From NCBI GenBank assembly GCA_003990765.1, contig RBNJ01000053.1, positions 1 to 46,625 of the forward strand: DNA of 46,625 bases, in the 5' to 3' direction. The notes below the pieces were generated by a model, which worked only from the letters and a program-made list of their open reading frames with translations, did not search any database and was not told the origin of the DNA. Shown in pieces: positions 250 through 28,598 of the stretch (its first letter is position 1; each line of letters begins with the position of its first letter). This stretch comes from Jimgerdemannia flammicorona (taxonomy: Eukaryota). The position numbers were made by a program, and so were the translations under genes.

Positions 250-1721
250 TGTAACAGTGACCCCAGAATGATGACATCAGCACAGAAGACAGCCTTTCCT
301 TACATGCCACCAGATCGGAGTACAAGAAGATCATATGGCATACGAGATGAGCAATGATGACCAACTGTGAGTCATTGTGACCACAGTACAAGCATCCTGA
401 AGAATATAAAAGAAGGATCAAGGAACTGCAGTAGCAGTAATCAACAAGAACCACCAATCCCAAAATAGCTCAAAGACTTACCACAAATGAAATGCCTGCT
501 GTCTGCCAAACCTCAAGGTCAAGGAATCACCAAGGTATCTCGGTCGAGGAAAGGATGTTCTAAGACATCAGAAGAGCCATGAGGACCCACTCAAGAAGGA
601 CTTCTAGTGTCAACCTGGGTACTGCAGACCCTTATCACTTCATTCTCTACCACCATGAAATGGAAACAAGGATCACTATTGCTACCGAATGTCTCCAAAT
701 GTGGCAGGAGTACGAAATAGGAAACCTCCTCTGCCGGGAGTTCCAACAAGCCAGCACCCAAGAGCTACAAGATGCCACTTCCATGGATATAAGCGAAACA
801 AGGACAGCTAAGAAGATCCATCAGATCTTCAGGCATGCACCATGGTCGATCCCCAACTTGGAGTATATTAGTGTCTCAGACTTCAGAGACCTATCATCCC
901 ACCATATCAATGTACTAGAAGCCAGGGTAGCTACAGAAGCCTGGTCCACTATCACTCTCAACAGTAAAGAAGTAGAAGACTTCTGGTACCCTATCCTTCA
1001 GGACAACCCAGACCAATTTCTGCAAGGATTGATCTCAGTATTCCAAGGCCCAAGCATAGAAGTTAGACCTCCCCAAGACCCCACATTTGTTCCCTATTTT
1101 GTGGAAGAGAACCTCATAGACTGGAGAGCTCCAGATCTTGTTCCCAATTTTCCCGCCATAGCCAAATATGATGACATCATCAGCGATGACGTCATCCTGT
1201 GTGACATAACTGAAGCACGCAAAGAATGTGAAACATGCGACCTGCATGACGAATTCATGGATCTCATCTCCTTCAGTGATGATGATGATGATGAGGATGA
1301 AGCTCCCATGGTCCTGAACTTTCTGCTCTAAGTTCTGTGTTACACTGGATAATGTCAGCACCGGTATTCTGAGGTGATGCAAAATTGTTCCAGTACCAGC
1401 ATTTTGATGTGACACTAAATAATGCCAGCATCCTGAACCTGTACAACTATCAGTACTGACTCTGGAACTTAGTAGTTTTAGTTATTGGAATTTATATTTA
1501 GCTTTATATTTTAGCAACCATTGAATTGTATTTTGTATAAATACCCCTCTTATTTCATCTGAAATAAAGTCAGTTCTGGTTTCACTTATACACACTTCCT
1601 TGCAAGCAATCTAAGAGATAACAAGACAGTTAAAGATAAGAATTTTGAGGACTATAAGATCTTGTGAAGGTACTCCAATAAGAACTTGCTTATAATAACT
1701 TGAGTTAGTCTAAGAGATACA
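250..1721 (+). repeat. 5' LTR of element 1 (right end uncertain: GTTACA at 1344 or GATACA at 1721)
   Basis: The first 106 bp match 7440-7545 with 7 mismatches. GTATAAATACCCC (~1536) and AATAAA (~1563) favour the longer boundary. No convincing primer-binding site found. Confidence 0.6.
579..1331 (+). CDS. 250-aa ORF of unknown function within the 5' LTR/leader region of element 1
   Basis: Uninterrupted ATG-TAA ORF with protein-like composition and an acidic C-terminus (DDDDDEDE). No family recognised. Confidence 0.45.
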   Translation: MRTHSRRTSSVNLGTADPYHFILYHHEMETRITIATECLQMWQEYEIGNLLCREFQQASTQELQDATSMDISETRTAKKIHQIFRHAPWSIPNLEYISVSDFRDLSSHHINVLEARVATEAWSTITLNSKEVEDFWYPILQDNPDQFLQGLISVFQGPSIEVRPPQDPTFVPYFVEENLIDWRAPDLVPNFPAIAKYDDIISDDVILCDITEARKECETCDLHDEFMDLISFSDDDDDEDEAPMVLNFLL

Positions 1722-1898
1722 CCTTGAAGAGAATCTGGCATATTTGAAGAACTCAGCAACCACTACATGACAACTTCATACCCATTGGCTGGTGATTCAA
1801 GATAAATCCCTCACTTTCAAGCTGAAAAACAAACAACCCCCACAACAACTACCCTGACTACAAGAGTCACCCCTGCAAGAATTCAAGATAAGATAGAA

Positions 1899-4800
1899 AT
1901 GTATCCCCCCACATTCTATGGATATACTACTAAAGAGTCAATCCTGACCTTCATTGAAGACTTTGAACAATTTGCCACCATATGAGCCATTGGTTTGGAT
2001 GCTCAATTGGCCCTTCTATCAGTCAGCCTCAGTGGACCTGCCAGAGATAAGTTTAATCAAGCCACTATTGCTGGTGCTGATGCAGTCAAACTTACCAACA
2101 TGAAGGTCTTCCTCAGAACAATATATTATACTGAAGAGCTCAAGCAAGCTCTCAAGGATCAACTCAATACTATCTGCCAGAGACTTAGTAAAGATCCCAA
2201 CTCATTCTATATCTGAATCTGCCACCAGATTGTCTTGGCTGGCTATGATGATACCCTTAAGGAACAAATAGCAGATTCAACCTTCCTCAAAGGAGTTCAC
2301 CCTGAAATTGCCCTAGCAATCTGGTCTACCCCAGCTGCACTGACTCTTGATCAGAAAGTGGTCTTTGCACAGAGATATTGTACTGCCAGACACTCTGCCA
2401 AATACTCAATGGAGAAAATAACTGACATCAAGATGGAGCCATCAAAGCTAACTAAACAGACAACCAACCCCACCTACCCCCAAGACAGCCAAAGCTGACC
2501 CAGTGGAAGAACTTGCCAAGCAGTTTGCTAAGATGACTGCACACCTTGGTAATGTTGTTAGAGAAGTCTGAAGTGCCAACAGAAGACCAGTGCAGAATTT
2601 GAAGCTGCTACAGAAGAATGCAATATCACATGCTTCAGATGTGGAGAAGAAGGCCACTATGCAAAGAGTTGCATGACCAAAATGAGATGCAAAGCCCAAC
2701 CAAGCAATGCTAGCAGAATCAGAGAACAAACCAATGCAGTAGTCATCAAGGAGATCAGTGACACTGATGATGAAGAATACTACAAGGAGCTCAAATTCTT
2801 CCCTGCTACTGAAGGTACCAGAACCCAGTCCAAGCCCTATGACAAGAAGAGCAACAGCAAGCCAGTTGGAAGACCAAAGAAGACTCCAGCTGTCACTATT
2901 CAAAGCAAGACCCAACCTGAGAAGATTGATCAAGACATGGAGTTAGATGAAGCTGCCTGCCAAATTATCGAAGACACTACTTCAGTCTCAGGAGAAAGCG
3001 AGAGCAAGAAGGAACAGAAGCTGCACAAGACCAAGATCCACCAGTATGACATCTACAAGGACCTCAAGGAACAGAAGGTCAATGCCACTTTTGGGCAGCT
3101 AGCTGAAGTTCCTGCCTTCAGACAGCAGTTGAGAGTAGGACTTGCAACTACTGCCAAGAATCAAGAGTACAAGATCATAGAAGCTCACAATGCACAAGAA
3201 GAATCTGAGAACTCAGGTGAAGAATCCGAAGACCAGCACAAGACATCAGCCTATACCACCTGCCAGATTGAAGACTGTATCTTTGATGCCATCATTGATA
3301 CTGGTGCTGGAGGATGCCTCATGAGCAAGAAGGCAATTGACCACCTAGGTTGGGACATTGAAGAGTTCACTAAGATGGTCTATGTCACAGCAGATGGTAT
3401 ACAAGCTACCCCCCTTGGCAAAATCTGAGAAGTCCCCATCAAGATAGGAGGAGCTACCATCCCAGTAGATATGATTATTACAAGCACCACCAACTATAAC
3501 ATCCTCATTGGCAACCAATGGCTTCACAAGGCTATGGCTATCATTGACCTCAATGCCCAGAAGATGCACATCAACTACAGAGGAAGAAAGGTATGAGTTT
3601 CTATCAATGTCCACAAAGGAGTCCTGCCAGACATGGATGAAGGAGATGAAGAAGACACAGAGGTCTTCATGCACTTGGTGAACAAGAACAAGAACAAGAC
3701 ACTCAAGCTCACAGATGAGTAGTGATATAACAAGATCATCGATGGGTATGCCCCTCAAGGAAGATGCCTCCATGGTACTAGAATGTACTGCTCCGAACAC
3801 CTGAATGACTGCTGGTCCTATATCAGTGAAGTCAAAAAATCTGCCAACAGAAATATGAGCAAGAAGCCACTGAAGCAAAAAGGAAAGCTGAAGAAGATGA
3901 CCAGCCCCCAGAGCTTCAAGCTGACAGTGACAATGAGGAGGAACAAGAATCAGACATCACCCTCAAGGTCAAGAAGTTTCACCCTGAAGCCAAGATCCCA
4001 GAATACAAGACTGAAGGAGCCATAGGAATGGACCTTGCCAGCATCCAAGATGCTACTCTTAAACCACAGATCACTACCATACTTGGCACTGAAATTGGAG
4101 TCAAGTTGCCAGAAAACCATGCCAGAATTATCAAGACCAGGAGCAGTCTGGCCAAAAGCGAAATCTCAGTTGAAGGAGGAGTAATTGACCCTGATTACAC
4201 TGGCGAGATTTTTCTCATAGTCAGAAATCACAACCACACCACTCCCTTCAAAGTCAAGAAGCATGACAGGATTGGCCAGATACTGATCCACGAAATAAAG
4301 AAGCCCAAGATCATAGAAGCCACTGAACTTATTAAGAACAAGAGAGAATAACAAGACTTTGGATCTACTGGAAGAGGAGCCTATACTGTAACCAAGATTA
4401 CTGAACTTGAGCACAAGAAAGACAAGGATCAGAACAAGCACACATATACCATTGGAGAAAACTTTCCCCTGGAGGAACAACTTCTCAAGATCCTGTACCA
4501 GAATGAAGGAGTACTTGCTACAGACATTAGGAATATCCACAATCAAGAACCCAAGTACTATCACAAAGTTGACACTTGTGATACCAAGCCTATCTATTAG
4601 AAAGCCAGACCCATACCACCTGCCTACAGAGAGTGGCTGCAAGCCAAACTCAAGGAAATGGAAGAAGTTGGAATCATCAAGCAAGCTATCAGCCCCTGGG
4701 CCTCACCCATTGTCCTTGCCCTGAAGAAAGGAAGTAAGCCTAGAGAGTTTGCATCAAGACTCTGCATTGACTACTGGAAACTCAATGCCATTACCAAGAA

Positions 4801-7127
4801 GAATAGGTAGCCCTTGTCAAATATTCAAGAAATCCTTACCACCCTTGGAAGCAAAGCCAAATACTACATCACCTTGGATCTGTTCTCAGGCTTCTATCAG
4901 ATTGGTCTCACTCAAGATGCCAGTGAGAAATCAGCCTTCATCATACCTGATGCCACCTATATCTATCTGTGAATGCCATTTAGAATGTGCAATGCACCAG
5001 CAAGTTTCCAGCAAATGATGAACAGAGTTTTCGGCAATGAGATTGGAAAATGGCTCTTTGTCTATATTGATGATATGATCATCTTCAGCAACACTGCATG
5101 GGAACATATCAATCACATACAGCTAGCCCTCAAGAGGCTCAAGGAGCATGGCCTCTACATCAAGCCCAAGAAATGCAAGTTTGCAGCTCAAGAAATTGCC
5201 TACCTAGGACACCTCATCAACCAGACTGAAATCCACACAGACCTCATGAAGATCGAGGCTGTTGCAGCCTACCCAAGACCCAGAACAACTACAGAAGTCC
5301 ATGCCTTCCTTGGACTGTCCAGCTACTACAGAAGATTCATCAAAGGATACTCCAATATTGCAGCACCTATCTACGAGCTACTGAAGAAGGAGACCAAATT
5401 CAAATAGACCAAGGAGTGCCAAGAAACCTTCAATGAACTCAAGACCAGGTTGACCCAAGCACCCATCCTCAGAAGACCAGACTGGAACCTAGAATTCATC
5501 CTGCAGACAGACATGAGTGCTATAGGACTTGGAGCAGTCCTAGCTCAGAAGAAAGATGGACATGAATATGTCATCTCCTATGCAAGCCGAGGTACTCGCA
5601 GAGTGGAACAGAACTACAAGTCATGCAAGCTTGAATGCTTAGCAGTAGTTTGAGCAGTAGACAAGTTCTACTACTACCTAGCTGGAAAACACTTCACCAT
5701 TCAAACAGACCATTCTGCTCTTGCCTGGTTATTCCACACTCTGAACCCCAAAGGAATATATACCAGATGGATCTACAGGCTGCAAGAGTATGACTGTACT
5801 GTCAAGCACTGCTCAGGAAAGACCAACACCAATGCTAATACACTCTCAAGGACATCCTGAAATACTCCCATCAAGACTACTCAACATAAATAAGAAGCTA
5901 TACTATGGATTAATCAGCTACCTTAGGCAGCAGAAGATACCCAACCACCTCGAACCCTGGACAATCACCATCATCAACTGGACTTGGAAACAGTTTGAAT
6001 TAGACAACACTATACTCAGAAAAGGAGGAAAGCTAGTAATACCTGAACACAAGAAGTATCAAGTAATGAAGGAAGAGCAAGAATACTTAGGAGGAACCAA
6101 CACATACAACAAGACAAGAAGAACTATGTGGTGGCCTAAGATGGAAGAAGACCTGTGTCAATTTGTCAAAGAGTGTGACAAGTGCCAAAAACAGAAACAA
6201 GATCAGCAAGATCAGGCATCTGGATCATCAAGAATTGAGCCTATCCCCTTCTACCACATTGCAATAGATATCATTGGACCACTACCAGTAATACTATCAG
6301 GAAACTGCTATATTATAGTTATTGTAGACCTCTTCACCAAATGGATAGAGGCAGGAGCATTACAAGAAGTGAATGCCCTCTCTATAGTTGACTTCCTATA
6401 CCGAGAAATCATCTGCCACTACAGGACACTAAAGCAAATCACAACAGACTGTGGTACAGAATTTTTCAATGAATTCCATGAGATAATGTATCAGAAATAC
6501 AAGATCCAGCACATCAAGACCACTATGTACCACCCTCAAGGAAATGGACAGACAGAGAGAATCAACAAGACCCTCAAGAACATCCTAGCAAAGATCTCAG
6601 AGACATATGAGAATTGGGTTAACTATCTCCCAACTGCCCTCTCTGTTCTACGAGATATATAGTCACAGAGTACACATTTTACCCCAAGAGAGCTGCTCTT
6701 CAGAGAAGAAGATTCTGATGGAACCTCAGCCACAAATCTAGACCTAACTTGGAGACAGATTGATGCAGAAATCCTGAGACTACACCAAATTAGGAAGAAG
6801 GCTGAAGATTACATCACTAAGTCAAAAGTGCTGACAAGGAAGAATGCAGAAAAGAATCACAAGGCCCTAGAACCCATTTGAATCAGAGAAAAGGTTCTAC
6901 TGTATTGAAATATGGTAGAAGCCTCATGATCACGAAAACTGGAGCCCAAATGAGAAGGACCCTTCTATGTGCAAGATATCAAGGGAACTACCTTCTGGCT
7001 TAGAAAAATCTCAGGGACCATACTGTCTACCATGGTACATAGGAACAGACTCAAGAAGTACTATAAACCCATACAAGAGAAGCAAAACATGATGACCACC
7101 TGCGAGGTTCTAGTCTGCAAATCATAA
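1899..7127 (+). pseudogene. gag-pol of element 1, broken by many stops and frameshifts
   Basis: Gag-like MYPPTFYG...FIEDFEQF. CCHC knuckle CFRCGEEGHYAKSC at 2631-2672. Protease IIDTGA ~3291. RT YIDD at 5063-5074. RNase H FILQTDMSAIGLGAVL ~5494. Integrase DIIGPLP / TDCGTEF / YHPQGNGQTERINKTLK. GPF motif ~6957. Confidence 0.95.
3959..4371 (+). pseudogene. dUTPase domain between protease and RT of element 1
   Basis: Trimeric dUTPase motifs in order: GMDL, RSSLA, GGVIDPDYTGEI, DRIGQ, and R..*QDFGSTG (motif 5, interrupted by a stop at 4349-4351). Confidence 0.93.
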
Positions 7128-11788: not shown

Positions 11789-12956
11789 TGTAACGTGCCC
11801 GGCTCAATGGAGGCAAATTACAAGGTTGGGGGTTGGTGTAGTTTGGCTTGAGCCCCCAGTTACTTTGTCAAAAAGCAACAAAATGTTCTAAGATTCCTGA
11901 GTGTATAGTGGTATAATAGTCAAAGCTGGATATCTGTGAGCGATTTCCTTATTGGGAGGGGTTCTTGGGTGTAGCGGCGATCTTGTGTATGTGGCGGACG
12001 GTTTTGGTGTAGCACGACGATCTCGGTGTAGCGTGACGTTCTCCAAAAGTATACGATTTCTGCGTGACGATCTCTTGTGTAGCGCAGCGATCTCCTTATG
12101 CGTGACGGTCTGGCAATTTAACGGGTTCCTTATGCGGTTTTGCGTGACGATCTTGTTTCCAAAAGTATGCGGTTTCTGGCGGATGACTCGATTTGGCGCG
12201 GATTCACTGGGAATAGAGGGTGGCGCGGATTCCTCCCGAATCGGCGGCTCACTGGGAACGGATGAATAACTCGGACGATGCGGATAATTCGGGTAACTCG
12301 GATAACTCGGATGTCGCGGATTCTTCCTGAATCGGCGGGCTTTCTGGGAATAATAACTGGCGGCGGATAACTCAATAACTCGGGTTCTTGGCAAGTTACG
12401 TCAAAGACTGGCTTCGTTTGCGCGGGGTTACGTCGTAGACTGGCTCCACTGCGAAGTTGCGTCAGAAGACTGGCTTGTGGCAAGTTTCCTTCAAAAGGCG
12501 GCGAAGTTCTTCCTTGAACTTTGGCGGCAAATCTTCAGGCTTATCTAGCAAGCGAACCAAGGCTTTGTATCGGAAAGTGGACCGGAGTGGAAAAGGAGAC
12601 CAATGCTCACAATCTCCTAACAGTAGCTGTAGAGTTCCTCTCAAAGTGTGGTAGGCAGACTTGTCTTTTGCTTTTGGATTCAATTTCGGACTGGGGTTTA
12701 TTCACTCTTGTCTCTGGGGTATTTTATACATTGTGGTTGCTATCTGGTTACTATGTTGCTAATTATAGATTGCTATCTATGGCAGGTGTGCTGGTTCAGC
12801 ACAGGTGTGCAGGTTCAGCATAAGTATACCTTATCTGGTAGTCTAGCTATTTATACAGTTTTCCGCAGCAATGGTTGCTGTGTCAGGTTACTTATGCTAT
12901 GTGTTCACTTCATCTGACCAAGTTACAATTCGAGTGGTACGATTTGGTTTGTCACA
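11789..12956 (-). mobile_element. Probable solo LTR (1168 bp)
   Basis: TG...CA termini (TGTAAC / GTCACA) flanked by ATATAT on both sides. The paralogous empty site is visible at ~30161-30190 (taaactaatttatatatgttaaaatctgcc). TATA-like and AATAAA motifs on the minus strand. A related copy starts at 37708. Confidence 0.85.
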
Positions 12957-13221
12957 ATATATGTTAGAATCTGTCCAAATGAGTTGCCCATTACACCTCG
13001 TTTCCGCCTATGTTAATGACTACAGAGGACCACATACGCGTATTGTCGGCTAGAAACTAAACCTATTAATGCAAAACATTGTGCGCTCCATTTTTACATC
13101 CAATCATACAACAGGAGTTTTTACTCTCCGTGCTTCGGCTAGAGAGCTGGCCCCCTTTCCGCCAATGTGATTGACTACAGGAAACAAACCTACAAATGCA
13201 AAAATATAATCTGCTCCATTT

Positions 13222-15238
13222 TTACATTCCATCATATAACAAGACTTTGAGGCTCGTGTTTACTTTCCACGCTTCGGCTAATGCGCTGGCTCCCTTCTCG
13301 CCAATGTTATTCTCTACAGAGGAATTCAAAAAAATACATATGCGTGGTGAGCAGCTAGAACATTATGCAGACGAATGCGAAACCGAATTGCACTTCATTC
13401 CTACAGACCTGATAGAAGCAGGTTTTGCAGGCTTGTGTTCATTTTCAGTGCTTTGGCCAGTGCGTTGGCTCCCTTCTCGCCAATGCCATTGTCTACGGAG
13501 TAATAAATAAAATGTATATGCATGGTTATCAGCTCGAACATCGTGTGGATGAATTCAAAAATACAATGTGCTTTACTCCCACATACAGAATAAATTCAGA
13601 TTTTGCAGGCTCGTGTTCATTTTCAGCGTTTCGGCTAGTGCATTGGCTCCCTTCTCGCCAATACCATTGTCTGCAGAGAAATGCATATAATGCATACACA
13701 TAGTTGTTAGTTAGAACACTAAATAAATGAATAAAAAAAATAATGTGCTTTGATCCTACAAGGTAGATTCAGGATTTGCAGGCTCGCGTTTATTTTCAGG
13801 GCTTCGGCTAATGTTCTGGCTCCATTCCCGCCAATATAATTTCCTATAGAGGAATACATAAATGCATATGAGTGGTTTTCAGCCAAAACGTTAAACAGAT
13901 TAATAAAATATAATGCACTTCGTTTCACCATACGTGATAGATCCAGGTTTTGCAGGCTCGTGTTTGTTTTCAGTACTTCGGCAAGTGCATTGGCTCCCTT
14001 CTCGCCAATACCATTGTCTACAGAGAAAAATTTACATATTTATGCATACTTATAAGCTAAATAATTAAACCGACGAAAACAAAAATATAATTCGCTTCAT
14101 TCCTACATACCTTCTAAATCCAAGGTTTGGAGGCTCCTGTTCATTTTCAGTGCTTCGGTTAGCAAGGTGGCTCCCTTCTCGCCAATAGCATTTTCTGCAG
14201 AGGAACGCATAATATATGTACGCGCGGTTGTCAGCTTAAACGCTAAATGGAGGGTTGCATAATATAATAATTATCATTTCTACATACTGCATAAACCAAT
14301 GTTTCGCAGACTTGTGTTCATTTTCAGTGTTTCGGCTAGTGAACTGGCTCCCTTCTCTCCAATGTAACTTCCTACAGAGTAACACATAAAATATATATGC
14401 TTGGTTGTCTGCTGGAATGATAAATAGATGAACGCAAAAAATAAGATATGTTTTATTCCTACCTGATAGATCCAGGGTTTGTAGACTCATATTGATTTTC
14501 AGTGCTTTGGCTAGTGTGTTGACTCCTTTCTCGCCAATTTCACTCCCTACAGAGTAGCACAAAAATGTATATGCTGGTTGTCAGCTGAGACACTAAACGT
14601 ATGAATGCAAAAATATAACGCCTTTCATTTCTACATACATGATATATCCAAGTATTGTAGACACGTATTCATTTTCAGTGCTTCGGCTAGTGCGCTGGCT
14701 CCCTTCTCGCCGATGTCATTCACTACAAAGTAACACATAAATTTATAGTATGGCTGTCCGTTAAAAACACATAAATATAAACCCTAAAATGTAATATACT
14801 TCATTCCTACATGTTAGATCCAGGTTTTGCAGGCTTGCATTCATTTTCAATGCTTCAGCTAGGGCGCTAGCTCCCCTCTCGCCAATGTAATTATCTGCAG
14901 AGTACACAAAATGTATATGGTTTGCTATCAGCCAAAACACTATACAGATAAATGCAAAAATACAATTTACTTCATTCCGACATACTTGTTAGATTCAGGT
15001 TTTGCAAGCTCATGTTCACTTTCAGTGCTTCGGCTAGTGCGCTAGCTCCCCTCTCGCCAATGTCATTCCCTACCAAAAAATATACATTTGGTTACCAGTG
15101 AGAATACTAAACAGATGAATACAGATAAAATGTGCTTCATTCTTAATTCCATACGTGATAGATCCAGGTTTTGCAGGCTCGTGTTCATTTTCAGTGCTTC
15201 GGCTAGTGCGCAGGCCTCATACTCATCAATACAATGTT
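13222..15238 (-). repeat. LRR exon-intron tandem array of copy A (12 units, ~170-185 bp period)
   Basis: 84-bp exons: 15238-15155, 15069-14986, 14894-14811, 14722-14639, 14546-14463, 14371-14288, 14194-14111, 14017-13934, 13843-13760, 13670-13587, 13492-13409, plus the terminal exon from 13313. Consensus xNxIGEKGASALAEALKMNTSLQNLDLx. Confidence 0.95.
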
Positions 15239-18187
15239 CTATAGAATATGCAAAATATATATAGTTGTCAGCTAGAATGTTAGGAAATGAATACAAAAAT
15301 AAAATGTGCTGAACTTCTATAAACCTTTTTTATAATAATCCATTCTTACTAAAATACATAAAAATATTAATATACAGTTAACAGTTAGGATCTCTCAAAA
15401 AAATAATACAGTTAATTTATATTTGTTATCAAGCTTTAAGGCTCCAATGTGAGTTGTGACCATTAAAAAATATTAATATATACCTGAAAGATTAAGTGTT
15501 CGAAGTTGAAAACATTTCTGAACAATATTTTTAATTCTACGGATAGAAAAGATCAGTTTTTTTTTTTTAGTATAGAGATTATAAAATAACCTATTTGTCA
15601 TTAAACAAAACATTGCCATACTGTATGTTCTTCATCTCATTTATTCTAAATAAGCATATCAATGTAATGTTAGTATTTAATTTGTAAAGTTTATCAAGCA
15701 ACAATATTTTGTTAACTTACTCAAGGATTTCAACAGTGGTTGCAGCATTAAATAGAGCTTCCACATCTTCAGAACGAACTTTGTTACAAGCTATAAAGCT
15801 ATAATTTGGCAACTCAGTAGTCATTCTAAGAAAGCAAAAAAAAAAAATTATAGACAAGCTTATTACCTAATTTTCCGCAAAGGAATATCAAATAGTACGC
15901 GCGTCGCCAAATTTCGAAATGTATGCAAAGATCTCTCTGACAAATCCTTCATTCTGAATATTATAACAAAACAGTCTTGAGTACAAAAACAACATAGACA
16001 TCAATTTGAATATTAAAAAACGGGAAATAATACAAACGTCAGCTCCCAAGTTTCGTTGTTAAACGTAATGCTGTCATTTATGGAACAGTTCTTGATGGCT
16101 GTATAAAGACTCCTAACAGCGTTTGTTGTCTCCCACTCTGATGCGTGATTCTTGCACACCCATCGCACTGTTACGGTACCGTTTTCCCCACGACGGAGCA
16201 CGCGCTGCAGATTCCCAGGCCAGTTTGTGTCATTCAAGCCCTTGAGACAAGCTATAAACCGAAATTCGAAAGGAAGCATGAGTACACGTAGAAATAAGCG
16301 CATTCACACTTGGACAGAAAATCAGTGTACCACTGCACCTTGAAGTTTTCGCAGATCAGGTCTTTCCATCAGTCCTGGTGCACTTTCTTGCGTCTTAACC
16401 AGCAGCGGAACCTCAGCCATATATTTCTTGGTCTGGTTATCCATGGCCCCGAGCTTGTCTCCGAATATCTTGAAAAACAATTCAGTCTGCGCGCAGAACT
16501 CAAGTTCGCGGTCCATAAATATCGACGAGTCAGTTGCATTGTATGCCGTTGAGGTGATTTGACCTTCAACCCGTAAGATGTCTGCTACCTCCTTCCAAAA
16601 TGCGGGGATACATTCCAATAGGCATCCTCCCAAACGTACAGCAAGCAATAGACATGGCATGATCTATTGAATGAGAAATGTTAGAAGGCGTGCAAAGAGA
16701 GTTCGGACACTAAAGCTCAAAGAGACGACATACCGTACGTATATATGTCCCATATTTAGCTACAAACTAAAAAAATAAAATAAAAATAAAATAAAAAAAT
16801 AAAAAAAATAAAAAAAATAAAAAAAATAAAAAAAAAAGACATGAAGTAATGATAGGTTAAGTAGAAAATAGGCACCCGTGTTGTAGTATATGGAGTATAT
16901 TCCATATTGAATATCAACATATCATACCTCCCGTGGTCGAGTGACATGGTAGCCATCATTGTACGCCAGATGGAACTGTTTCTTTGTGGTGCCGTTTTCG
17001 ATGGTTTCGTGCTCGCAAAGAAAGTATAGACGGAACGTTTTGGTGAAGAGAACGTCAATTGATGGCGACCACCAATGACCATCCTCGGGAAATATGAAGA
17101 AGAGTCGCGGGACTGTATCCTCATGGAGATCGAGCATAAGCTTAGGCAGACTGTCAACCTTGCCGCGGATTTCGTCGAGGCTGCTCAGTATATCTCTCGT
17201 GTCGTTTTTTTTGTCTTCTATGTTATTCTTTATGTCCTATGCAATTTGTATAAATTTGGGGAAAATAGCCACGGAATTTGAATAAGCATTGTATCAGGAC
17301 AATACGGCAACACAAAATATCGATTACTACTAACCAACGCTAGATTGTAAGGTGGTGCTGTGAATGCAAAGAATAATATTTAGTCAGCAAAAGGCTCGCG
17401 CGCTTTTGATGAATGTTTCGAAATCCCATCCCTTTGAATGACTACATAATAAAACTGTGTAATTCACCTACCTCGGAGTTGGTCCTTCAGAATGTCGAGA
17501 AGTCTGCACTCCCTTTCATGAAGTTGTATGCGTTCTTTACCAAGTCGATCTTTCTCCTTCTCATCCGTTGTCAGTGCCACCAGTTCAAATTTTTGCATCA
17601 GTTCATCGATTTCGGTCTCAATCCTCTTAATTCTAGCCTCGGCAGCACTTTCGTCGGTAGCTGTTACATAAAATTGTAAGCGCAACCTAAATTTAATTCA
17701 AGACGACAATTATTTGCATGGACAATAGTTGCCACACCAAAGAAAAATCACGCACCTTCCCAATATCCCTGCTGACCACCGCACCCTACGTTAAATACAA
17801 ACGAAATGTTCCAGTTTGGGTAAGCAAAGGTACCGGAGCTGCGGGTCACATTCACAACTATCGGCAGAGCTATTTATCCGATGACGGATCCTTGAATACC
17901 ATTGCTTAGGATAATCATTTGACAATACTAGAGTAATTACCTCGTAATCGAGAAATCTCACCCACTATTTTGGCCACCGGTCCACCTGGTAAGTTATATG
18001 GAGGTCCCAGTAGATCCTCTTTTGTAAGCTGAACGAGAGCGTTTCCGTCTACTTCTTGATCCAGCAAGATTGTCGCATGCTCTGGCTTCAATCGGAGCGC
18101 GGGATGCCGAAAGTGCTCAAAGAGTGTGTATTCGTCCCAAGTCTTGATTTCGTCAAGCGAAGGAGTTGGAAGTTCGGAGGAGGACAT
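13222..18187 (-). CDS. Copy A: SAM - coiled coil - conserved core - RI-like LRR protein; 25 exons, ~883 aa
   Basis: Manual GT-AG model, open throughout. Non-LRR exons: 18187-17941 (SAM: QEVDGNALVQLTKEDL..YNLPGGPVAKI), 17785-17756, 17660-17472, 17357-17335, 17236-16928, 16766-16734, 16663-16339, 16251-16038, 15953-15867, 15798-15721, 15645-15622, 15536-15484, 15348-15325. Then eleven 84-bp LRR exons and terminal exon 13313-13222. Exon phases and nearly all lengths are conserved in copy C. Confidence 0.88.
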
Positions 18188-19399
18188 GGTAACAGAAGTA
18201 GAGGTATATACTGGTTTTCTTTTGGTCGCTAAGGGAAGAGTTGTCTGCAGGAGTGAAAGTCGTTTTCGCAAGGTATTTAACTAACGTAATAAGGGTGACT
18301 GCTATCTCTTTTCAGCTTCCAAACGTCACAAAGAATACAAAGAATACAAAGAATACAAAGAATGCAACATAATACACTGGAATATTCTCTTGTATATAGT
18401 AAGCATGTTTGTCAAAATACGGACATGTGATACCTGCATAATTGACAGGACTTAATCGTTATTATATAATTATACAAGAGGGCATTCAAATCAAAACGGA
18501 CAAAATTTCTTTGAGAGATAAGATCGGTTTTGATTTGAACGCATGGTTGTCATTCATACATAGTTCTCCTTAGCTGCAAATATCGCTGTATTCTCCTAAT
18601 TATTGTCAGGAATTCACATCTAGATAAACAAAGTTGATTTGAATACTTGAACCTTAAAAAGGAATGTAAGTTCGAACCGAAATCCAGTTCGACATTTTCA
18701 TGGCGCAGTAATCAACACAGCATGTGTCCTCTCATGAGAATTTTGATGGGAGGGTATAGCCAAAGAAGGCTATAAAAAAGTGTGTGTCTGCTTCCCATGG
18801 CTGTGTCAGGTGTGCCGATTCCTCTTAAAAGTTTTTGTTTAAGTGAGCAGACCGCCCTGAGCGATTCTTCGCCTTTGGGGTCGTTTGCGAGGTGATAGTA
18901 GGGTTGCGGTGCGTGTAGACTACCCATCCTAGTCAGATCCAAAATGGGATAGTCTCGTTTCCGTTGAATCGAGAAAATGTTCGTGACCATCTGTATGGTT
19001 ATTAACCAGAGGACAGAACCTTGGATTGTTACCTATTGGGCAATCTCGTTCATAAATTTTGTCACGGCCCACGGGGCGTTTCGGTAAGTAGAATGGTAGG
19101 GGCCCGACAGTTTCCTGATCACGAAAAACCGCTACATGGTCAGATAGCAAAGTGTCAAATGTTCTGTGTCAGCCGACGAGTATCATACCTTTTCAGTTAC
19201 TAATGTGAAATGAACAAATCCTCATGTTGGAGCTTTTGACACCTTCAGGATTTTGATGGACCCGAGTCAATTATAGGGTTCATGCTATGTCCACAGTAAT
19301 AATCACACTCTAATTGATGAAACTGCAAGTCGTAACTTTGATCGGACAGGCGGCTTAAATTTTGAGCAGTAATGAACGTTTTGGATTGTACCTGTATAT

Positions 19400-20320
19400 G
19401 AATGTTTTAGGGATAGCTGATATACTGAAGCCAATATGCCTGGACGTGCTGATGTCATCGGTCTGCCAATTATGAAAGCATCGATGCCTTCATCCGCAAA
19501 TAAAACATCGAACGTAGACCGGATCTCTGCGGTGCGTGGACATGTTCATGTGATCGTATGGGGGAACGGTAACAAAGGCAGCGGAGGTCGCGCGCTTCGA
19601 AATTGTAGCAATTGCGTTCTCTGCAACCATGAGCTTGGCGATGATTTTGAATTGTACGAAACACGCGTTCGGGTTGGTCAGAAACGTTTGACACAGCATT
19701 GCGAGGTTGCTACGCAGGATGATATCACGTAAATCTGGATTCCTGGTACCATACATTGAGTACCTGCGCCATACATTTAAATAAATACATGTGTACACTA
19801 AGTACGCCATGTAATTATGTGACGTGGTTTTGCAATTTTCAACTTAAACTCTCGTCAGGCGATGGACCAACTGGTGAATGATTACGTCCATAAGGGTCTG
19901 ACGTCCGTTGTGTGGAATGCTGGGTCTATCCATCATGACTGAAGCATATCTGCGATACTCAAACGACTTGGCTTTTTTAAGAGCGGGACATAATCTATGG
20001 AAGATCTGACAACCGTATCGTTGGCATCGCAAGACGTAAGCGTCTCTATCAGGATTTGTCTGTTATTAGACACTGGCACAGCGGAATGTATAGAAACCAA
20101 GTAGTTGCGTGGAAGCGAAATCGGCAGATTTTGAATTGAAAGCCATATTTTATTTCCATAATGTCTTCATCGATGCGTGGGTATTAGAGTGAAAATAAAC
20201 AGATTGGGGTCATTATGGGTTAATCGAAAAAACTGATATATGCAAACATATTTTAAATTCTGCCAAAATGAATTGCCCATTCCACCTCGCTTCCGCTGAT
20301 GTTAAGGGCTACAGAGGACC
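19400..20320. repeat. Shared inter-gene segment of the tandem unit (homologous stretches at ~11400-11788 plus 12957-13030, ~29290-30250 and ~38375-38730)
   Basis: Recurrent anchors: catcgca(g/a)ga(c/t)gtaagc at ~11478, ~20024, ~38441; ccctgtcc(g/a)tga at ~11606, ~30018, ~38570; gcgaggttgctacgcaggat at ~19701 and ~29638. Confidence 0.85.
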
Positions 20321-20404
20321 ACATAAATGTATACGCGAGGATTTCGACTGGAAACTAAACATATGGATGCTAAAGCACAGTGTGCTCCATTTCTACATTC
20401 TCCA

Positions 20405-22543
20405 CTAAACCAAGACTTTGAGGCTCGCGTTTACTTTCTTCGCTTCGACTAGAGCGCTGGTTCCCTTCTCGCCAATGTTATTCTCTACAGACGAATACAG
20501 AAAATGCATACGCATTGTTATCAGCTAGAATGCTACGTAAATAAATGCACAAACAAAATATGCTTCATTCCTACAGACCTGATAAATCCAGGTTTTCCAG
20601 GTTGGTGTTCATTTTCAGCGCTTCAGCTAGTGCGATGGCTCCCTTCTCGCCGATACCATTTCCTACAGAGGACCCCACACGCGGTTGTCAGCTCGGAGGC
20701 TTAACAGATGAATGCAAAAATATAATACGCTTCGTTCCCACATACTGGCTAGCTGCACGTCTTGCAGGCTTGTGTTCATTTTCAGTGCTTCCGCTAGCGC
20801 GCTGGCTCCCTTCTCGCTAACGCCAATGCCTAGAGAGGAACAAGTAAAATTAATATGCTTCGTCATCGGATTGAACTCTAATGAATGCAAAATCATAATG
20901 CGCTACATTTCTACATACATTTTAAATTCAGGTTTTGCAGGCTTGAGTTCATTTTCAGTGCTTCGGCTAGCGCGCTGGTTCCCTTATCGCCAATGGAATT
21001 GTCTACAGAGAAACACATAAAATGTAATCGAATCGTTGTCAGCTAAAACGTCAAATAGATGAAAGCAAAAATGTAATGCACTTCATTCCAGCATACTCCT
21101 TAGATTCAATATTTGCAGGCTCGTGTTCAATTTCAGTGCTTCGGCTAGTGCGCTGCCTCCTTTCTCGCCAATCCCATTTGCTACAGGGAACACATAAATT
21201 TATACGTGTAGCTGTTAGCTAGAACACTGAACAGATGAATGCAAAAATACAATGCAATATACATTTTAGGTTTAGGCTTTGCAGGCTCGCGTTCATTTTC
21301 AGAGCTCCGGCTAGTGCGCAGGCTCCCTTCTCGCCAATAGAATTATCTACAGGGGAACACGTTAAATGTATACGGGTGGTTTGTAGCTAAAACGAATGTA
21401 TAATGCGCTTTATTCGTACACACCCCATAGATTCAGATTTTGCAGACTCCTGTTCATTTTTAGTGCTTCGGCTAGTGCACTGTCTCCCTTCTCACCAATG
21501 CCATTGTCCACAGAGGAACACATGCATGCTTGTCAGCTAGAGCACTAAACAGATGAATTCAAAAATGTAATGCTCTTCATTCGTACATACTTGTTAGATC
21601 CAGATTAATAAGTCTTGTATTCATTTTCAATCCTTGGGCTAGTACGCTGGCTCTCTTTTCGCCAATAACGTTATTTGCAAAGAACACATAAAATATACAC
21701 GCGCGGTTGTTGGTTAAACCACTAAGCAGATTAATGCAAAAATATAATGCGCTTCATTCCTACATACCCTATAGATTCAGGTTTTGCAGGCTCGTGTTCA
21801 TTTTCAGTGTTTCGGCGAGCGCGCTGGCTCCCTTCTCACCAATATCATTGTCTACAGAGTAACAGATACCTGCTTGTCAGCTAAAAAAAACTAAACAGGT
21901 GAATGCAAAAATATAATGCTCTTTATCTCCACACACTTGTTAGATCCAGGTTTTGAAGTCTTGTGTTCATTTTCAGTCCATGGGCTAGTACGCTGGTTCC
22001 CTTTTCGCCAAGACCATTTTCTGCAAAGGAACACGTAAAATTTATACGCGCGGTAGTCAGCTAGAGCACTAAACAACTTAATGCAAAAGTATAATTTGCT
22101 TCATTCCTACATACCACATAGATTCAGGTTTTGCAGGCTCTTGTTAATTTTCAGTGCTTCGGCTAGTGTGCTGGCTCCCTTCTCACCTATACCATTGTCT
22201 ACAGAGGAACACACAAAGTGTATACGCATGCTCGTCACCTAGAACAATAAACAGATGAATGCAAAAATATAATGCTCGTCGCTCCCGCATACATGTTAGA
22301 TCCAGGTTTTGCAGGCTTGTGTTCATTTTCAGTCCTTCGGCTAATACGCTAACTCTCTTTGCGCCAATATTATTTCCTACACAAAATTTATACGCTTGGC
22401 TATCAGCTAGAGTACTAAACATATAAATGCAAAAATATATTGTTCTTCATTTCTCATACTTGCTAGATTCAGGTATTGCAGGCTCGTGTTAATTCTCAGT
22501 CCTTCGGCTAGTGCGCTGGCTCCCTTCTCGTCAATATAACGTC
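20405..22543 (-). repeat. LRR exon-intron tandem array of copy B (13 units)
   Basis: 84-bp exons starting at 22543, 22376, 22198, 22020, 21851, 21674, 21507, 21346, 21180, 21002, 20829 and 20662. Terminal exon 20484-20405. Confidence 0.93.
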
Positions 22544-24984
22544 CTGCAGGAGAACATACAAACATGGTTGTCAGCTAGAACAATAAACAGATGATTGCAA
22601 TAATATAATGTGTTTAATTCTTACATACCTTTTTTATAATAACCCAATCTGACTATAGAAGTACAAGAAAAAAAGTAACTATTAAAAAGATAATACTGTT
22701 TTCATTGCTATAACTTCAGCTACAATGATGTAATTATTTTTTCTATTGATGAAATTTCCGGAGGAGAAATCTCAGATATGAGATGTGACTACTGTATAAA
22801 GCTATTATAGTTGTATATCTGAAAGATCAAGTGTTCGAAGTTGAAGACACTTCTGAATAATATTTTTAATCCTACAGACAGGTAAAGATTGACTTTGTTA
22901 GTATGAATATTTTTGGTTATTATTAATAATTATAGACCAAAATATTAAACATTAAATGAAAGATAATTATACTGTATATTTTTTATCTCATTTATTCTAG
23001 AGAAGTATGTATATGTGATGTTAGCATTTAATACATCAAGTTTTTCAAATAAAAAAATGTTTACATTAACTTACACAAGGATTTAAATGATGGTTGTAGC
23101 ATTAATAGGAGCTTCTACATCTTCCAAATGAACATTTTCGCAACCTACGAAGCTATAATTCCATCATTTTCAGCAAGAAAATTATAAGGCAAAGGTTTAC
23201 TTAATACCTGATTTTCCGCAAAGGAATACCAGGCAGCACGCGCGTCACGGAATTTCGAAATGAACTCAAAGATCCCTTTGACAAATCATTCATTCTGAAT
23301 ATTAAAATATAACAATATTTAGTATGAAAACAGCATAATTAGACATAATGATACAAGTAGAAACATTAAAATCAGAATATAATACGAACTTCAGCTCCCA
23401 AGTTTCGTCATTAAATGTAATACTGCCATCTATGGAACAGCACTTGATTGTTGTATGAAGACTCCGAACAGCGTTTGGTGTCTCCCACTCCGAGGCATGA
23501 TTATTGCACACCCATCGCACTGTTATACTACCTTTTTCCCCACGACGGAGCACGCGCTGCAGATTCCCAAGTCGGTTGACGTTATACAATAATCTCTCAA
23601 AGTAAGCTACAAACCGAAATTCGAAAAAAAAAAAAAAAAAAAGGATTAATATATATATAAATCAGCGCACGAATAATTGGATGTATCGCTGTACCTTGAA
23701 ATTCTCGTAGATCAGGTCTTTCCATCCGTCCCGGTGTTTCTCTTTGCGTCTGAAACAACGTCGGAGTATCAGTTGTATATTTCTTGCCCTGGTTATCAGT
23801 AGCCTCGAACTTATCTCCGAATGTCTGTTTGTTGTCCGTTGAAGCTACTTGACCACCAGCCCGTAGGACCTCTGCTTCCGCCTTCCCAATTTCAGGGACA
23901 CATTCCAATAAGCGTCCTCCCAAGCGTACAGCAAGTAATAGACAGGACATAATCTGTTGTATAATAAATATTAGATGGCGTGCAAAGAGAGTTCGGATAC
24001 TCAAGCTCAAACAGACGACATACCGTGCGTATGTATGTCCCATATTTAGCTATAAACTAAATATATTAAGATGTGTTTCATCAGAAAAGTAAGCACCCGT
24101 ATTGTAATATATGGAGTACATGTCATATTAAATTTCAACATAGCATACCTCGCGTGGTCGGGCGACAGGATAACCACCATGATACGCCAGATGGAACAGT
24201 TTCTTTGTGGTGCCGTTTTCGACGGTTTCGTGCTCGCAGAGAAAATATAAACGAAATTTTTTGGTGAAGAGGCTGTCAATTGACGGCGCCGACCAATTAC
24301 CATCCTTGGGAAAGATGAAAAAGAGTCGCGGGATTCTATCCTCATGACGATCGAGCATAGGCTTGGGCAGACTGTCAACCATGCTGTCAAGGTCGTTGAG
24401 TATCTCGATTTCGGCCTTGATTCTAGCCTCGGCATCACGTTCGCCGCCAGCTGTTATATATAATTGTAAGCGCCAATTAAATTTTAATTCAGCGTGGCGG
24501 ATTTGCAGGGACAATTGTTGTCACACCGAAGAAAATCCGCACCTTCCATAAATCCCTGCTGACCAACTCGTCCTATGTCAAACGCATGTAAAATATTCAA
24601 GTTTGGGTTAGCAAAGGTACCGGAGCTTTAAATCACATTCACAACTATCAGCAGAGCCATTTCCTCGATAATTAATCCTTGAATGCCCTTTGTAACCATT
24701 TCTTTGGATATGCATTTGACAATAGCTGCAGTAATTACCTCGTAATCGAGCAATCTCACCCGTGATTTTGGCCATAGGGCTACCTCGTAAGTTATACGAG
24801 GTTCCAACAAAACCTTTTCAGTCAGCTGTACCAGAGCGTTCCCGTCTACTCCCTGATCCAGCAAGATTGCAGCATGTTCGGGCTTCAATCTGAGAGCGGG
24901 ATGCTGAAAGTGTTCAAAGACTCGGGTTTTGTCCCAAGTATTGATTTCGTCAAGCGAAGGAGTTGGAAGTTCGGAGGAGGACAT
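20405..24984 (-). pseudogene. Copy B of the SAM-core-LRR gene (13 LRR exons), inactivated
   Basis: 1-bp deletion in the SAM exon (~24799). In-frame TAA at 23085-23083 (GAA in A and C). Donor GT>AT at 22818. LRR acceptors AG>AA (21675) and AG>GG (21509). In-frame fusion of exon 3 to exon 5 (~24405). Confidence 0.88.
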
Positions 24985-25746
24985 AGAGTCAGAGGTAGAG
25001 GTGTGATTTTCTTTTGGTAATTAAAAGAAGAGTTATCTGCAGACGTGGATATCGTTTTTGCAAGGCATTTTATCCGTGCGAAGCGACCGCCGAAAAGTCT
25101 CCTTTCAGCCTTCAAACGTCACGAAATTAATTCTAGTAGTAACAAAGTACGAGCTTGTGATACCTGTAAGACTGCAGGACTCGATTGTTATTATTACATA
25201 AGTGCATAAAATCTTTGGGAGACAAGATTGGTTTAGATTTTAGATTTGAACGCAGATTATCTACATATTGAATTGTGCGACTGAAAAACAACCAATTCAT
25301 TCATACTAATTAAATGCGAATAGAATATGCCCAATTCGCAGTCTGCCAGTAGCCAATTTGAATATTTCAACTTTAAGAAGTTTGTGCAGCGTCGGTAGTA
25401 TAAGCCGAATTTCGAACTTTGACCAAGCTATACTTAATTGGTCTTGGCTGTTCAGACCCGATTAAATCCCGGCATGATAAAGTGGATGTGTCTATTTTAT
25501 CGGGCAAATGCGTGCATGAGGAATGTTTCTGTCTTGAATGCTTTGCAATGGTCAGTTCAAAGAACCCGACATGAAAAGGAGTGTACAAGAGGAGGCGGGT
25601 GGGAGCGAGGGCCGTGCTGAGCAAAAGGGAGAGGTAGAACTTCAAAGCTATACAGCTTGCCTAATCGAGTGAATACGTGATATCCCGGACAATGTTATGG
25701 CGCAGTTTTCCTTTAATCAAGCCCAGCACGTGTTACTAAAAGAACG

Positions 25747-27275
25747 TGTGATGCTGAGATGACTCCTACTTCCTATGTTGGGTGGCCGGTTCCTCCGACC
25801 TGATTTGGACAATTGCTGCTTCCCATGGCCGGCGTACTCCTTACCCCGGATTCGTGCCACTTGCGGCTCCTGTTAGCAGGCGGAGCTACCTTGGCACGTC
25901 TACCGATCGTCTCGACCAGGGTTTCGTCGTCGCGGACGTCAATCAGAATGAAGGGTCCAAACCGGTGCAGATATAGGTAGGTATGGGGAATGACGCATCG
26001 TCGTCTGGGTGAAAATGAGCCCCATAGAGTGGGTAGACTAGGTGTCTTGCCTAAACGTTGTCCTGGCCGCCGTTAGAGGTTTTTGGGGAGCGTTCGTTGT
26101 TCGGGAGAGGTTGGCATCAGTTATTTCGAGGTCTGCAGGATGGTTGCGGCGGTTTGACTTCCATCTGATCTTTTTCTCAATGTCCATTGGTCCATTGGTC
26201 TCTTCTAGATCGTCCGACACGGTTAGCTCCGTATTGATATCGGTATTGACAAGGGTTCCGGGCTCCACGTCGGATGCTTGCACACTGACTTCTTTGGGTG
26301 GGTATGGTTCGAAGTTTCCAAGACTAACGAGTGTTCTTGGCTGGGGACTGGGGACAGTTGAATGATTGGGCGTGGCGCTGATCGTTTCTTCGTCGTTATC
26401 TTTTTCATTTTCCGAGGTGTCGGCCGAAGTGTCGTTAAGGACAGTGCAGCTGGATCTTGTCTAGGCCTCAGCAACCAGTTCGGTATTGACTGATGGCTCT
26501 GCTTCTAACGCCTGTGTACCGATCTCTCCGCCCCCTCCGCCCGGGGTATTGTCCGTCCTCGTCAAGGCCTCCGTCTATCATCTTTGGCACCTCTACGATG
26601 ACCTCTGCTTCCTTGCGCCGTCGGCTTTCATGCGATGGGGTTGAAACGGACGGGCATCATTATCGGGTAAGCTTCGGCTTCTGCGCCTTCTTCTTCCATT
26701 AGTTCGGGAACGCTTAAGTGATGTGCGGTAGGTCAGAGTCGTAGGGTAGGCCTGACTTCGCGCCGATAACCAGGCTAGGTTGGGTTTGGATTACGCCGGC
26801 TCTCGTGGTTGACGTTCAGCCTAGCAATATGCCTTTCTTCTTCGCATTCATAGTACTGGCGAACATTGGTCGTTCGTCGCTGTTGCATCTGCTCGTTCAT
26901 CACTGTTGCATCTGCTCGCTGTCGCTGTTGCATCTGCTCGTTCGTCGCTGTTGCATCTACTCGTTCATTTCCGCGCTAACTGCCTTTCATACTATCTCCG
27001 TTATCTCCCCATTGCTAGGCTCGGGCTACGTTTGCCGAGGTAGCCATCACGATCGGTGTAGTCGCACTGATCGGAACCTGACCTTGTCCTTGCATTAACA
27101 GACCTGCCGAAGGGTTCGTCGAAAAATTTGGTTGCAGCATTAGGTAAGGATTGGTGACCGCGAGCGGGTTGCTGGCATAGGTCTGGCTGTCGAAAGGCTC
27201 GAGCGAAGTGTGGAGACACTATGGGGACGAACATGGTTGACCGGAGGATTCCTATTTGGCCGACATTTTCCTCCC
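25747..27275 (-). mobile_element. Probable 3' LTR (~1519 bp, 27265-25747) with adjacent polypurine tract; rest of the element missing
   Basis: On the minus strand GGGAGGAAAA (27275-27266) is followed by TGTCGGCC...CATCACA. The tract resembles the GGAGGAAGA/TG junction of element 1. Similarity to the paralogous host sequence at ~39074-39125 ends at this boundary. Internal imperfect tandem repeat ctgttgcatctgctcg at ~26875-26965. Confidence 0.65.
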
Positions 27276-27865
27276 AGGCCCCTTGCGCTGCGGAAAGGAC
27301 CCTTCGTTATTCACGCTGTGTAATCACTTGCATTATTTTCCAGTCCCAAAGTTCAGAGTACATACAACATGGTGTTGTTAGCTAAAATATAATCCAATAA
27401 AAAGCACAATTCTGAAGCTCGGAGATATGTGTGAAACTGTACTTTTATATAAAGAAGAATAGTGCTTGAGGAAGTTGAATGTGGCTGTCATAAGGAACTG
27501 CCTAACTGGTTCTCTGCAGGCTCAAGCGTCGGCTTGGCCGATATAGGATTACAGAATTTTTTTTCACATCAGCTGGGCCTCGAAGGCATAATAACGTAGA
27601 GCAATCGTGGTCTGTGCTTGCAAAGATAATAGATAGTGGCGGCCGCCATATTTCCAATTTTCAATAAACGGATGGTCGTAGTTACATGACGCCGTCAATC
27701 CAGTTCGACAGACATAAAGTGAGATAAACTGGGCACCTCCATGGTTCTCCTGGTCGTGCCCGACGGCATCTTACGTCTGAAGATCAGGTTCGCTTTTATC
27801 ACCAGAGTCCGCTGCGCCCGATGCGAACACAAAATCCTTGATATCTGTGGAATTTTCTTACCAAA

Positions 27866-28129
27866 GATCTGTGTTCGAATAACATCGGGAAGGTTGGCAA
27901 AACCCAACGCAAATGCCCTCGAAACTTAGAAAACCCTCACCTCATTGAATCCCAGGAAAAAAATTATCGGGCAGAAAAAACCATCGCAAAGACCATGGAA
28001 GCCAACGAAAAGAATCTATCTTTGAATGGCATCGGGAAGGAGGGCGCGAAGGCCGTCGCGGGGGTTCCCGAACCCAACAAAATTCTCACTTCATTGGATT
28101 GGTCGGGGAATAGCATCGAGGAGGAGAGG
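27866..28129 (+). pseudogene. Intronless RI-like LRR relic (about 3 degenerate repeats)
   Basis: Reads DLCSNNIGKVG / ANALET*KTLTSLN / NLSLNGIGKEGAKAVAGVPEPNKILTSLDWSGNSIEEE (last block 28013-28126), with frameshifts and a stop. Confidence 0.7.

Positions 28130-28567: not shown

Positions 28568-28598
<31 letters not shown>

Follow-up and report, generated by a model that had tools for sequence, protein, structure and literature searches.

Genes in which each leucine-rich repeat (LRR) of a receptor has an exon of its own, with a codon split where two exons meet, are already known. In human NOD/NLRC genes each exon encodes one 28-residue LRR in a strictly frame-preserving manner and the exon border falls at a constant place relative to the beta-sheet, a layout that has been proposed to permit alternative splicing (Hoss et al. 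2019, PMC6642158). In Tetrahymena, arrays of 90-bp LRR exons share a uniform phase, and the residue encoded by two exons is referred to as the 'junction amino acid' (Xiong et al. 2019, PMC6564038). Brown-algal ROCO genes are built from 72-bp LRR exons and show positive selection at four concave-face sites; their authors speculate that somatic recombination or alternative splicing could provide additional diversification (Zambounis et al. 2012, PMC3341825, and a 2024 paper, PMC11378527). The LRRs of zebrafish NOD-like receptors (NLRs) likewise sit on single exons (PMC4852459). According to surveys of fungal NLRs, these proteins carry no LRRs (Dyrka et al. 2014, PMC4986451; Uehling et al. 2017, PMC5658179). 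Here we analyze a 46,625-nt stretch of DNA (the window) that carries three tandem paralogs on its minus strand, A, B and C, each containing an array of LRR exons. Our main subject is the array of gene A, whose LRR-coding portion spans 13409-15238 (minus strand), and the codon that is split at each of its exon junctions.

We propose that gene A is a receptor-like gene whose array grew by duplication of exon-plus-intron units in the germline, that its split codon would go back to the intron position of an ancestral unit, and that its variable residues would be kept diverse by selection on a predicted binding surface. Taken as a whole, we give this reading a probability of about 0.78.

Exon anatomy and three hypervariable codons

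The arrays contain 31 LRR exons (12 in A, 13 in B and 6 in C), and every one of them is exactly 84 nt long. Each exon encodes a single 28-residue LRR as 2 nt, 27 codons and 1 nt. LRR-LRR junctions within a gene number 28 (11 in A, 12 in B and 5 in C), and at every one of them the codon is split 1+2, in phase 1. The original prediction placed this split immediately before the conserved Asn of the repeat, and we reproduced it at each junction; the four residues that it listed around the successive junctions of copy A are also exact in 11 of 11 cases (SRND, TNNY, TLND, SWSE, SGSY, CKNA, EDNG, SRNY, PYNG, FYNG and SENN). The residue that follows the split codon is Asn in 25 of the 31 exons and His (2), Ser (2), Arg (1) or Ile (1) in the rest. 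Inter-LRR introns measure 77-95 nt, with a GT donor in 28/28 and an AG acceptor in 29/31, both exceptions being in copy B. Thus, the LRR exons have the equal lengths, divisible by three, and the single intron phase of an exon-per-repeat array. In gene A this phase symmetry is confined to the LRR exons, and the other introns are of mixed phase.

The 31 units of 28 codons fit the consensus LxxLxLxxNxL followed by an amphipathic helix, with Leu or Asn invariant at four positions. A profile of 29 exon peptides found rabbit NOD2 as its best match of solved structure (E 6.9e-16). Taken singly, 2 of 8 exons gave partial matches to Pfam LRR_6, which at 19-20 bits stayed below the cut-off (23.4), since the repeat unit as defined by Pfam runs across the exon junction. 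The LRR part of an AlphaFold model of a homolog from Mortierella antarctica (P0029) is predicted with a pLDDT (predicted local distance difference test) score of 84-94, and a Foldseek search with this model returned NOD2, ribonuclease inhibitor and NLRPs as top matches. By their sequence, the repeats belong to the ribonuclease-inhibitor (RI) type, of the NOD2/NLRC3 kind.

Three codons of the repeat are hypervariable. Following the LxxLxLxxN numbering, we call them x7 (the last full codon of the exon), x8 (the split codon) and x10 (the codon after the Asn). Their entropies are 3.32, 3.20 and 2.76 bits respectively, and no other position exceeds 1.88 bits, in line with the earlier remark that the helix part of the repeat changes little. 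In fact, even the earlier x positions (x2 and x3) are fairly conserved. The split codon alone specifies 11 residue types over 28 junctions, so the original prediction was right to call it hypervariable. It was too narrow, however, in calling it the hypervariable residue: x7 and x10 are encoded entirely within exons and are as variable as x8. Since these two codons are unsplit yet equally variable, the split is not the cause of the variability.

Variation at these codons is greater than at intronic or synonymous sites. Nucleotide diversity in the nine hypervariable columns ranges from 0.55 to 0.73 (mean 0.63), as against 0.30 for the introns (94 aligned columns) and 0.26 for the third positions of other codons (25 columns). 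A diversity of at least 0.55 is reached in 9/9 hypervariable columns, 10/94 intron columns and 1/75 other exon columns (hypervariable versus intron, Mann-Whitney p ~6e-6, for columns that are not independent). The three codons have proportions of nonsynonymous differences (pN) of 0.65, 0.65 and 0.53, which are 1.4-1.7 times the overall proportion of synonymous differences (pS) of 0.39 in a pairwise Nei-Gojobori comparison. In five independent pairs of young duplicates, hypervariable sites differ in 14/45 cases and other exon sites in 43/375 (p 0.001). The pattern extends to other genes: among 25 LRR units of six homologs from databases, variability again peaks at x8 (2.96 bits) and x7 (2.78 bits).

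Origin of the arrays and of their diversity

In LRR solenoids, x positions of this kind face the concave side and are exposed. The original prediction located them on the concave ligand-binding face and in the adjacent loop, and the model of the Mortierella homolog supports a location of this kind: a beta strand is predicted on LRR positions 3-5 (up to 7) and a helix from about position 13, so that x7 and x8 would close the strand on its C-terminal side or open the ascending loop, and x10 would fall within that loop. The variation at the three codons fits diversifying selection, and we infer selection here rather than relaxed constraint.

To explain these results, we envision the following series of events. 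The intron of an ancestral unit would have happened to fall within the codon before the conserved Asn, and all copies would have inherited the split. The array would then have grown and changed by unequal crossing-over in the germline, gaining and losing exon-plus-intron units, while x7, x8 and x10 would have been kept diverse by selection on the predicted binding surface. The diversity is written in the germline, in the first and last bases of each exon, on both sides of the junction, and the split codon would be a by-product of the ancestral intron site. Owing to the symmetric phase, the frame would survive the gain, loss or skipping of a unit, and x8 would be reset along the way; there is no sign that the cell makes use of this resetting.

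The relationships among the units agree with a history of this kind. The 28 inter-LRR introns can be aligned with one another (mean diversity 0.30), and their 28 identical positions were therefore inherited from one ancestral unit and count as a single event. With 3 variable codons among the 28 of a repeat, one intron has odds of about 1 in 9 of falling in one of them, which is not remarkable. In a tree of the units, A, B and C have orthologous units at both ends of the array, and the internal units cluster by gene. Units C2, C3 and C4 are 87-93% identical, introns included; the groupings B3/B5/B7 and B4/B6 point to duplication of a two-unit block, and tandem-repeat periods of 175-178 and 346-351 agree with this. 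Introns were copied together with their exons and the paralogs differ in unit number (12, 13 and 6), as is characteristic of exon duplication. On this evidence, the arrays arose as exon-plus-intron units were duplicated and lost in the germline. Beyond the repeats, upstream exons of copy C match all parts of the N-terminal region of gene A.

Could the arrays be decaying, and the variation be mutational debris? Copy B certainly carries lesions: an in-frame TAG in exon 21851-21768, AA and GG in place of the acceptor at exons 21674-21591 and 21507-21424, and a frame change in its first, SAM exon. It looks like a pseudogene. A degenerate exon remnant also lies after the stop codon of gene A. Gene A itself argues the other way, with an 866-codon open frame, GT..AG borders at 21/21 introns and spliced RNA contigs (assembled contigs from two runs, presumed to be of RNA, which were aligned to positions 12900-32000). 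Moreover, the scaffold of the repeat is strongly conserved, and the variation is limited to three codons instead of being spread over the exon. General decay is thus scarcely credible as the source of the diversity. As to copy B, its three disabled exons (21424-21851, minus strand) are consecutive and resemble the 'inactivated exons' of brown-algal ROCO genes; a join of B4 to B8 would stay in frame (AAT, Asn).

The original prediction took a further step, in which the joining of a new exon pair would make a new codon and hence junctional diversity. LRR exons would then be joined variably by splicing, and x8 codons beyond those of the germline would result. The exons lend themselves to such a scheme: they are of equal length and symmetric in phase 1, so that any skip keeps both the frame and the repeat register, and the junction codon lies within the variable patch, where non-adjacent joins in A would yield 13 different residues. 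Precedents exist as well, since alternative splicing of LRR exons is documented in human NLRP3 (PMC6642158) and alternative splicing has been reported for brown-algal ROCO genes (PMC11378527). That joining two exons anew yields a new codon is correct arithmetic but a trivial point, already published for Tetrahymena (PMC6564038).

As had been noted, some non-adjacent joins would create stop codons and the adjacent joins of A and C create none: adjacent joins give a stop in 0/12 cases in A (cap exon counted), 0/12 in B and 0/5 in C. These zeros are expected, because any open reading frame requires them. Among non-adjacent forward joins, 10/66 in A, 7/66 in B and 3/10 in C would make a stop, at or above the fractions expected from products of base frequencies (0.139, 0.083 and 0.12). 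Skipping a single exon would do so in 2/11, 2/11 and 1/4 cases, and with the exon order shuffled the probability of meeting no stop is 0.058, 0.26 and 0.49, respectively. Stop-making joins are thus not depleted, so there is no sign of selection for free exon recombination. In addition, a skip would alter one x8 residue yet remove a whole repeat, a small gain compared with the loss, and two of the three hypervariable codons are unsplit, so that their variability needs no splicing. In the LRR region, the contigs of both runs mix pieces of A, B and C with pieces of unseen paralogs, and 3-25 letters are unmatched at the listed joints; no reliable non-adjacent LRR exon join is found among these joints, in repeat-collapsing contigs that are unsuited to showing skips. 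Junctional diversity made by splicing would matter if it were true, but it is so far unsupported and we consider it very unlikely. A wider form of the idea is combinatorial receptor diversification, in which proteins would differ in their number of repeats and x8 would be respecified at each novel join, whether exons are skipped in RNA or units are frequently gained and lost, in the germline or somatically. It strikes us as quite improbable too.

A more serious competitor to selection is neutral drift, in which x7, x8 and x10 would be unconstrained surface residues that seem faster than introns only because constraint acts on the short introns and the synonymous sites, or because these are homogenized along with the scaffold. 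In fact, the introns hold a conserved donor, an internal block that resembles a branch site in our reading of the alignment, and an acceptor tract, and the variable columns are near saturation, which makes their ratios imprecise. Still, drift has to account for all nine hypervariable columns reaching a diversity that few intron columns and a single other exon column attain, for the excess of pN over pS, and for the same positions being the most variable in homologs of other genera. Homogenization does not help it much, because gene conversion of whole units would wipe out the diversity of these sites too, unless selection retained it. We therefore regard drift as unlikely.

Several points nonetheless weigh against germline duplication combined with selection on a binding surface. 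In the young duplicates, hypervariable sites (14/45) exceed introns (83/436) with no more than marginal significance (p 0.077). Constraint or gene conversion may act on the short introns and the synonymous sites themselves, which leaves 'faster than neutral' unproven, and our pairwise statistics take the units as unrelated when they share ancestry. The concave orientation and exposure of the three residues are those expected of LRR solenoids in general, the predicted secondary structure is that of the Mortierella homolog, as opposed to the gene A protein, and ligand binding by x7, x8 and x10 is putative. Finally, a scan with a profile of the conserved domain that precedes the repeats in gene A found an RI-type LRR array in 0/72 related metagenome loci; one of these loci has a single, chance match to an LRR motif pattern that matches 22 times in the window.

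Gene A, its relatives and its surroundings

The gene A model (Table 1) was built from the splice joints of the RNA contigs together with the sequence. Gene A is transcribed and spliced according to these contigs, which show spliced joints at 15953/16038, 16663/16734, 17235/17334, 17357/17472 and 17784/17940, with clean GT..AG joints at the unique N-terminal exons. In contigs of both runs, exon 1 is spliced to 17784/5, an acceptor that leads to a premature stop in copy A. A gene model with this acceptor was dropped for that reason, and we infer instead the use of an acceptor about 125 nt downstream (exon start 17660), which keeps the copy A frame open. Also in the 17660-17785 region, one contig lacks 21 nt at 17731 and so may derive from a paralog.

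Table 1. Positions of gene A, its parts and the three LRR arrays in the window
Feature	Position	Strand	Remarks
Gene A model	13222..18187	-	22 exons, all 21 introns GT..AG, 866-codon open frame, TAA 13224-13222
Exon 1, SAM-like N-terminus	17941..18187	-	weak Pfam SAM_1 match, E 0.027, under curated cut-off; conserved in B and C
Coiled-coil exon	17472..17660	-	read from translation; long helix at equivalent place in homolog model
Conserved domain, no Pfam family	16038..17236	-	exons 17236-16928, 16766-16734, 16663-16339, 16251-16038
LRR cap exon	15484..15536	-	ends in phase 1; gives first base of first junction codon
LRR exon A1	15155..15238	-	acceptor AG, donor GT; junction to next exon CGG (Arg)
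LRR exon A2	14986..15069	-	junction to next exon AAT (Asn)
LRR exon A3	14811..14894	-	junction to next exon TTG (Leu)
LRR exon A4	14639..14722	-	junction to next exon TGG (Trp)
LRR exon A5	14463..14546	-	junction to next exon GGA (Gly)
LRR exon A6	14288..14371	-	junction to next exon AAA (Lys)
LRR exon A7	14111..14194	-	junction to next exon GAC (Asp)
LRR exon A8	13934..14017	-	junction to next exon CGA (Arg); RNA-contig joints at 14017
LRR exon A9	13760..13843	-	junction to next exon TAC (Tyr)
LRR exon A10	13587..13670	-	junction to next exon TAC (Tyr)
LRR exon A11	13409..13492	-	junction to next exon GAG (Glu)
Terminal LRR exon A12 and stop codon	13222..13313	-	mismatch-free RNA contig covers 13086-13313, match begins 13313
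Degenerate LRR exon remnant, downstream of gene A stop	13091..13174	-	in-frame stop, no GT donor
Array A	15238-13222	-	
Array B	22543-20401	-	13 exons
Array C	31298-30326	-	6 exons

The predicted protein consists, in order, of a SAM-like exon, a coiled coil, a conserved domain that spans about 330 residues and belongs to no Pfam family, a cap exon and 12 LRRs. Pfam found no match to NACHT or NB-ARC in the upstream exons, and no Walker A pattern occurs in the 866-residue gene A model, which does not qualify as an NLR/STAND NTPase.

The conserved domain has its best match, at 67% identity, in two hypothetical protein fragments of Endogone sp., and a profile search yielded 589 relatives. The ten that were looked up are either hypothetical Mortierellaceae proteins or unnamed proteins from metagenomes. 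This kinship with Endogone and Mortierellaceae makes a Mucoromycota-type fungus the most likely source of the window. Pfam LRR_6 repeats are present in 6/57 scanned relatives, so the combination of the domain with RI-type LRRs occurs in Mortierella, Gryganskiella and others. As for the 72 metagenome loci, most come from a single metagenome, with dozens of paralogs of the domain that are devoid of RI-type LRRs. The domain family is hugely expanded in some organism and combined with other C-terminal regions. Searches for the fold of the domain gave little: the ESM Atlas returned no usable match, and in a structure search with a 388-residue homolog model only the LRR-like C-terminal residues 253-388 matched, residues 50-250 being barely tested, so that no novelty of their fold follows.

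As for the repeats, a search with the LRR part of the Mortierella homolog retrieved 2125 proteins with E values of 1e-20 or lower, with Mortierellaceae proteins annotated 'RNI-like' first, some of them with NACHT, followed by animal NLRC3 at 41-49% identity. In P0172 and in other Mortierellaceae or unnamed proteins, NACHT (PF05729) occurs together with RI-type LRR_6. Proteins of the NACHT-LRR kind thus exist in early-diverging fungi, contrary to the surveys of fungal NLRs cited above. Together, the window and the many Mortierellaceae proteins show that LRRs of the NOD2/NLRC3 type are present in Mucoromycota-type fungi, and the family of gene A becomes a candidate family of recognition receptors in early-diverging fungi. 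A non-exhaustive search of the literature on LRRs and NLRs of Mucoromycota, Mortierella and Endogone found no description of this family among the entries listed.

Other features of the window lie outside the three genes. On the opposite strand and adjoining the LRR cluster, 43197-45602 (plus strand) holds an uninterrupted frame of 801 codons that encodes a CHAT protease-like domain (Pfam E 1.2e-18) and, after it, a P-loop NTPase region, which has weak matches to AAA_22, NB-ARC, NPHP3_N and NACHT and is STAND/NLR-like. Between B and C, an open frame at 27842-28171 (plus strand) matches LRR_6 weakly (E 0.0028) and may be an inverted LRR fragment. At about 560-6660 (plus strand) lies a region that resembles a long terminal repeat (LTR) retrotransposon, with zinc knuckle, aspartic protease, dUTPase (E 2.2e-23), and integrase zinc-binding and core domains.

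Gene A among known repeat receptors

Gene A is thus one more case, independent of the others, in which each LRR has its own exon. It can be compared with the Mortierellaceae 'RNI-like' proteins, which have the same LRR type and many paralogs and are annotated only as hypothetical or RNI-like. As regards the variable residues, there is a parallel in plants. In the LRRs of plant resistance genes the exposed x residues of xxLxLxx are hypervariable, a pattern commonly attributed to diversifying selection on a ligand-binding face; as in gene A, variation is found at x positions around the strand, and the Leu/Asn scaffold is conserved. The plant LRRs mostly lie on long exons, however, and the residues that vary in gene A are x7, x8 and x10.

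As regards the exons, the Tetrahymena arrays share with gene A LRR exons of equal length and uniform phase, a residue coded by two exons, and an origin traced to clonal expansion and exon shuffling (PMC6564038). They differ in their length of 90 bp, as compared with 84 nt, in phase 2 (2+1) as opposed to phase 1, and in LRR type. The junction residue is hypervariable in gene A, whereas the description of the Tetrahymena 'junction amino acid' does not state that it is.

Brown-algal ROCO genes (PMC3341825, PMC11378527) also encode a repeat per exon, bases 3-71 of the 72 encoding the repeat, with a codon split 1+2. Similar to A, B and C, the number of repeats varies among recent paralogs, and exons are inactivated by stops or lost splice sites. 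The ROCO genes differ in their 24-residue LRR, in their ROC-COR GTPase and in having LRR exons on the opposite strand as well. Their selected sites (14, 16, 18 and 19 in the numbering of these papers) lie off the junction, whereas x8 of gene A lies at it.

The human NOD/NLRC genes (PMC6642158) resemble gene A in anatomy, in that both place one 28-residue RI-type LRR on each exon, with a constant border in the beta-strand region and preservation of the frame. Gene A differs from them in its fungus-like host and in the absence of a NACHT or other NTPase domain, its repeats being preceded by the SAM-like region, the coiled coil and the non-Pfam domain. One possibility is that the 84-nt phase-1 LRR exon of the NOD/NLRC type is an ancient cassette, common to animals and early-diverging fungi.

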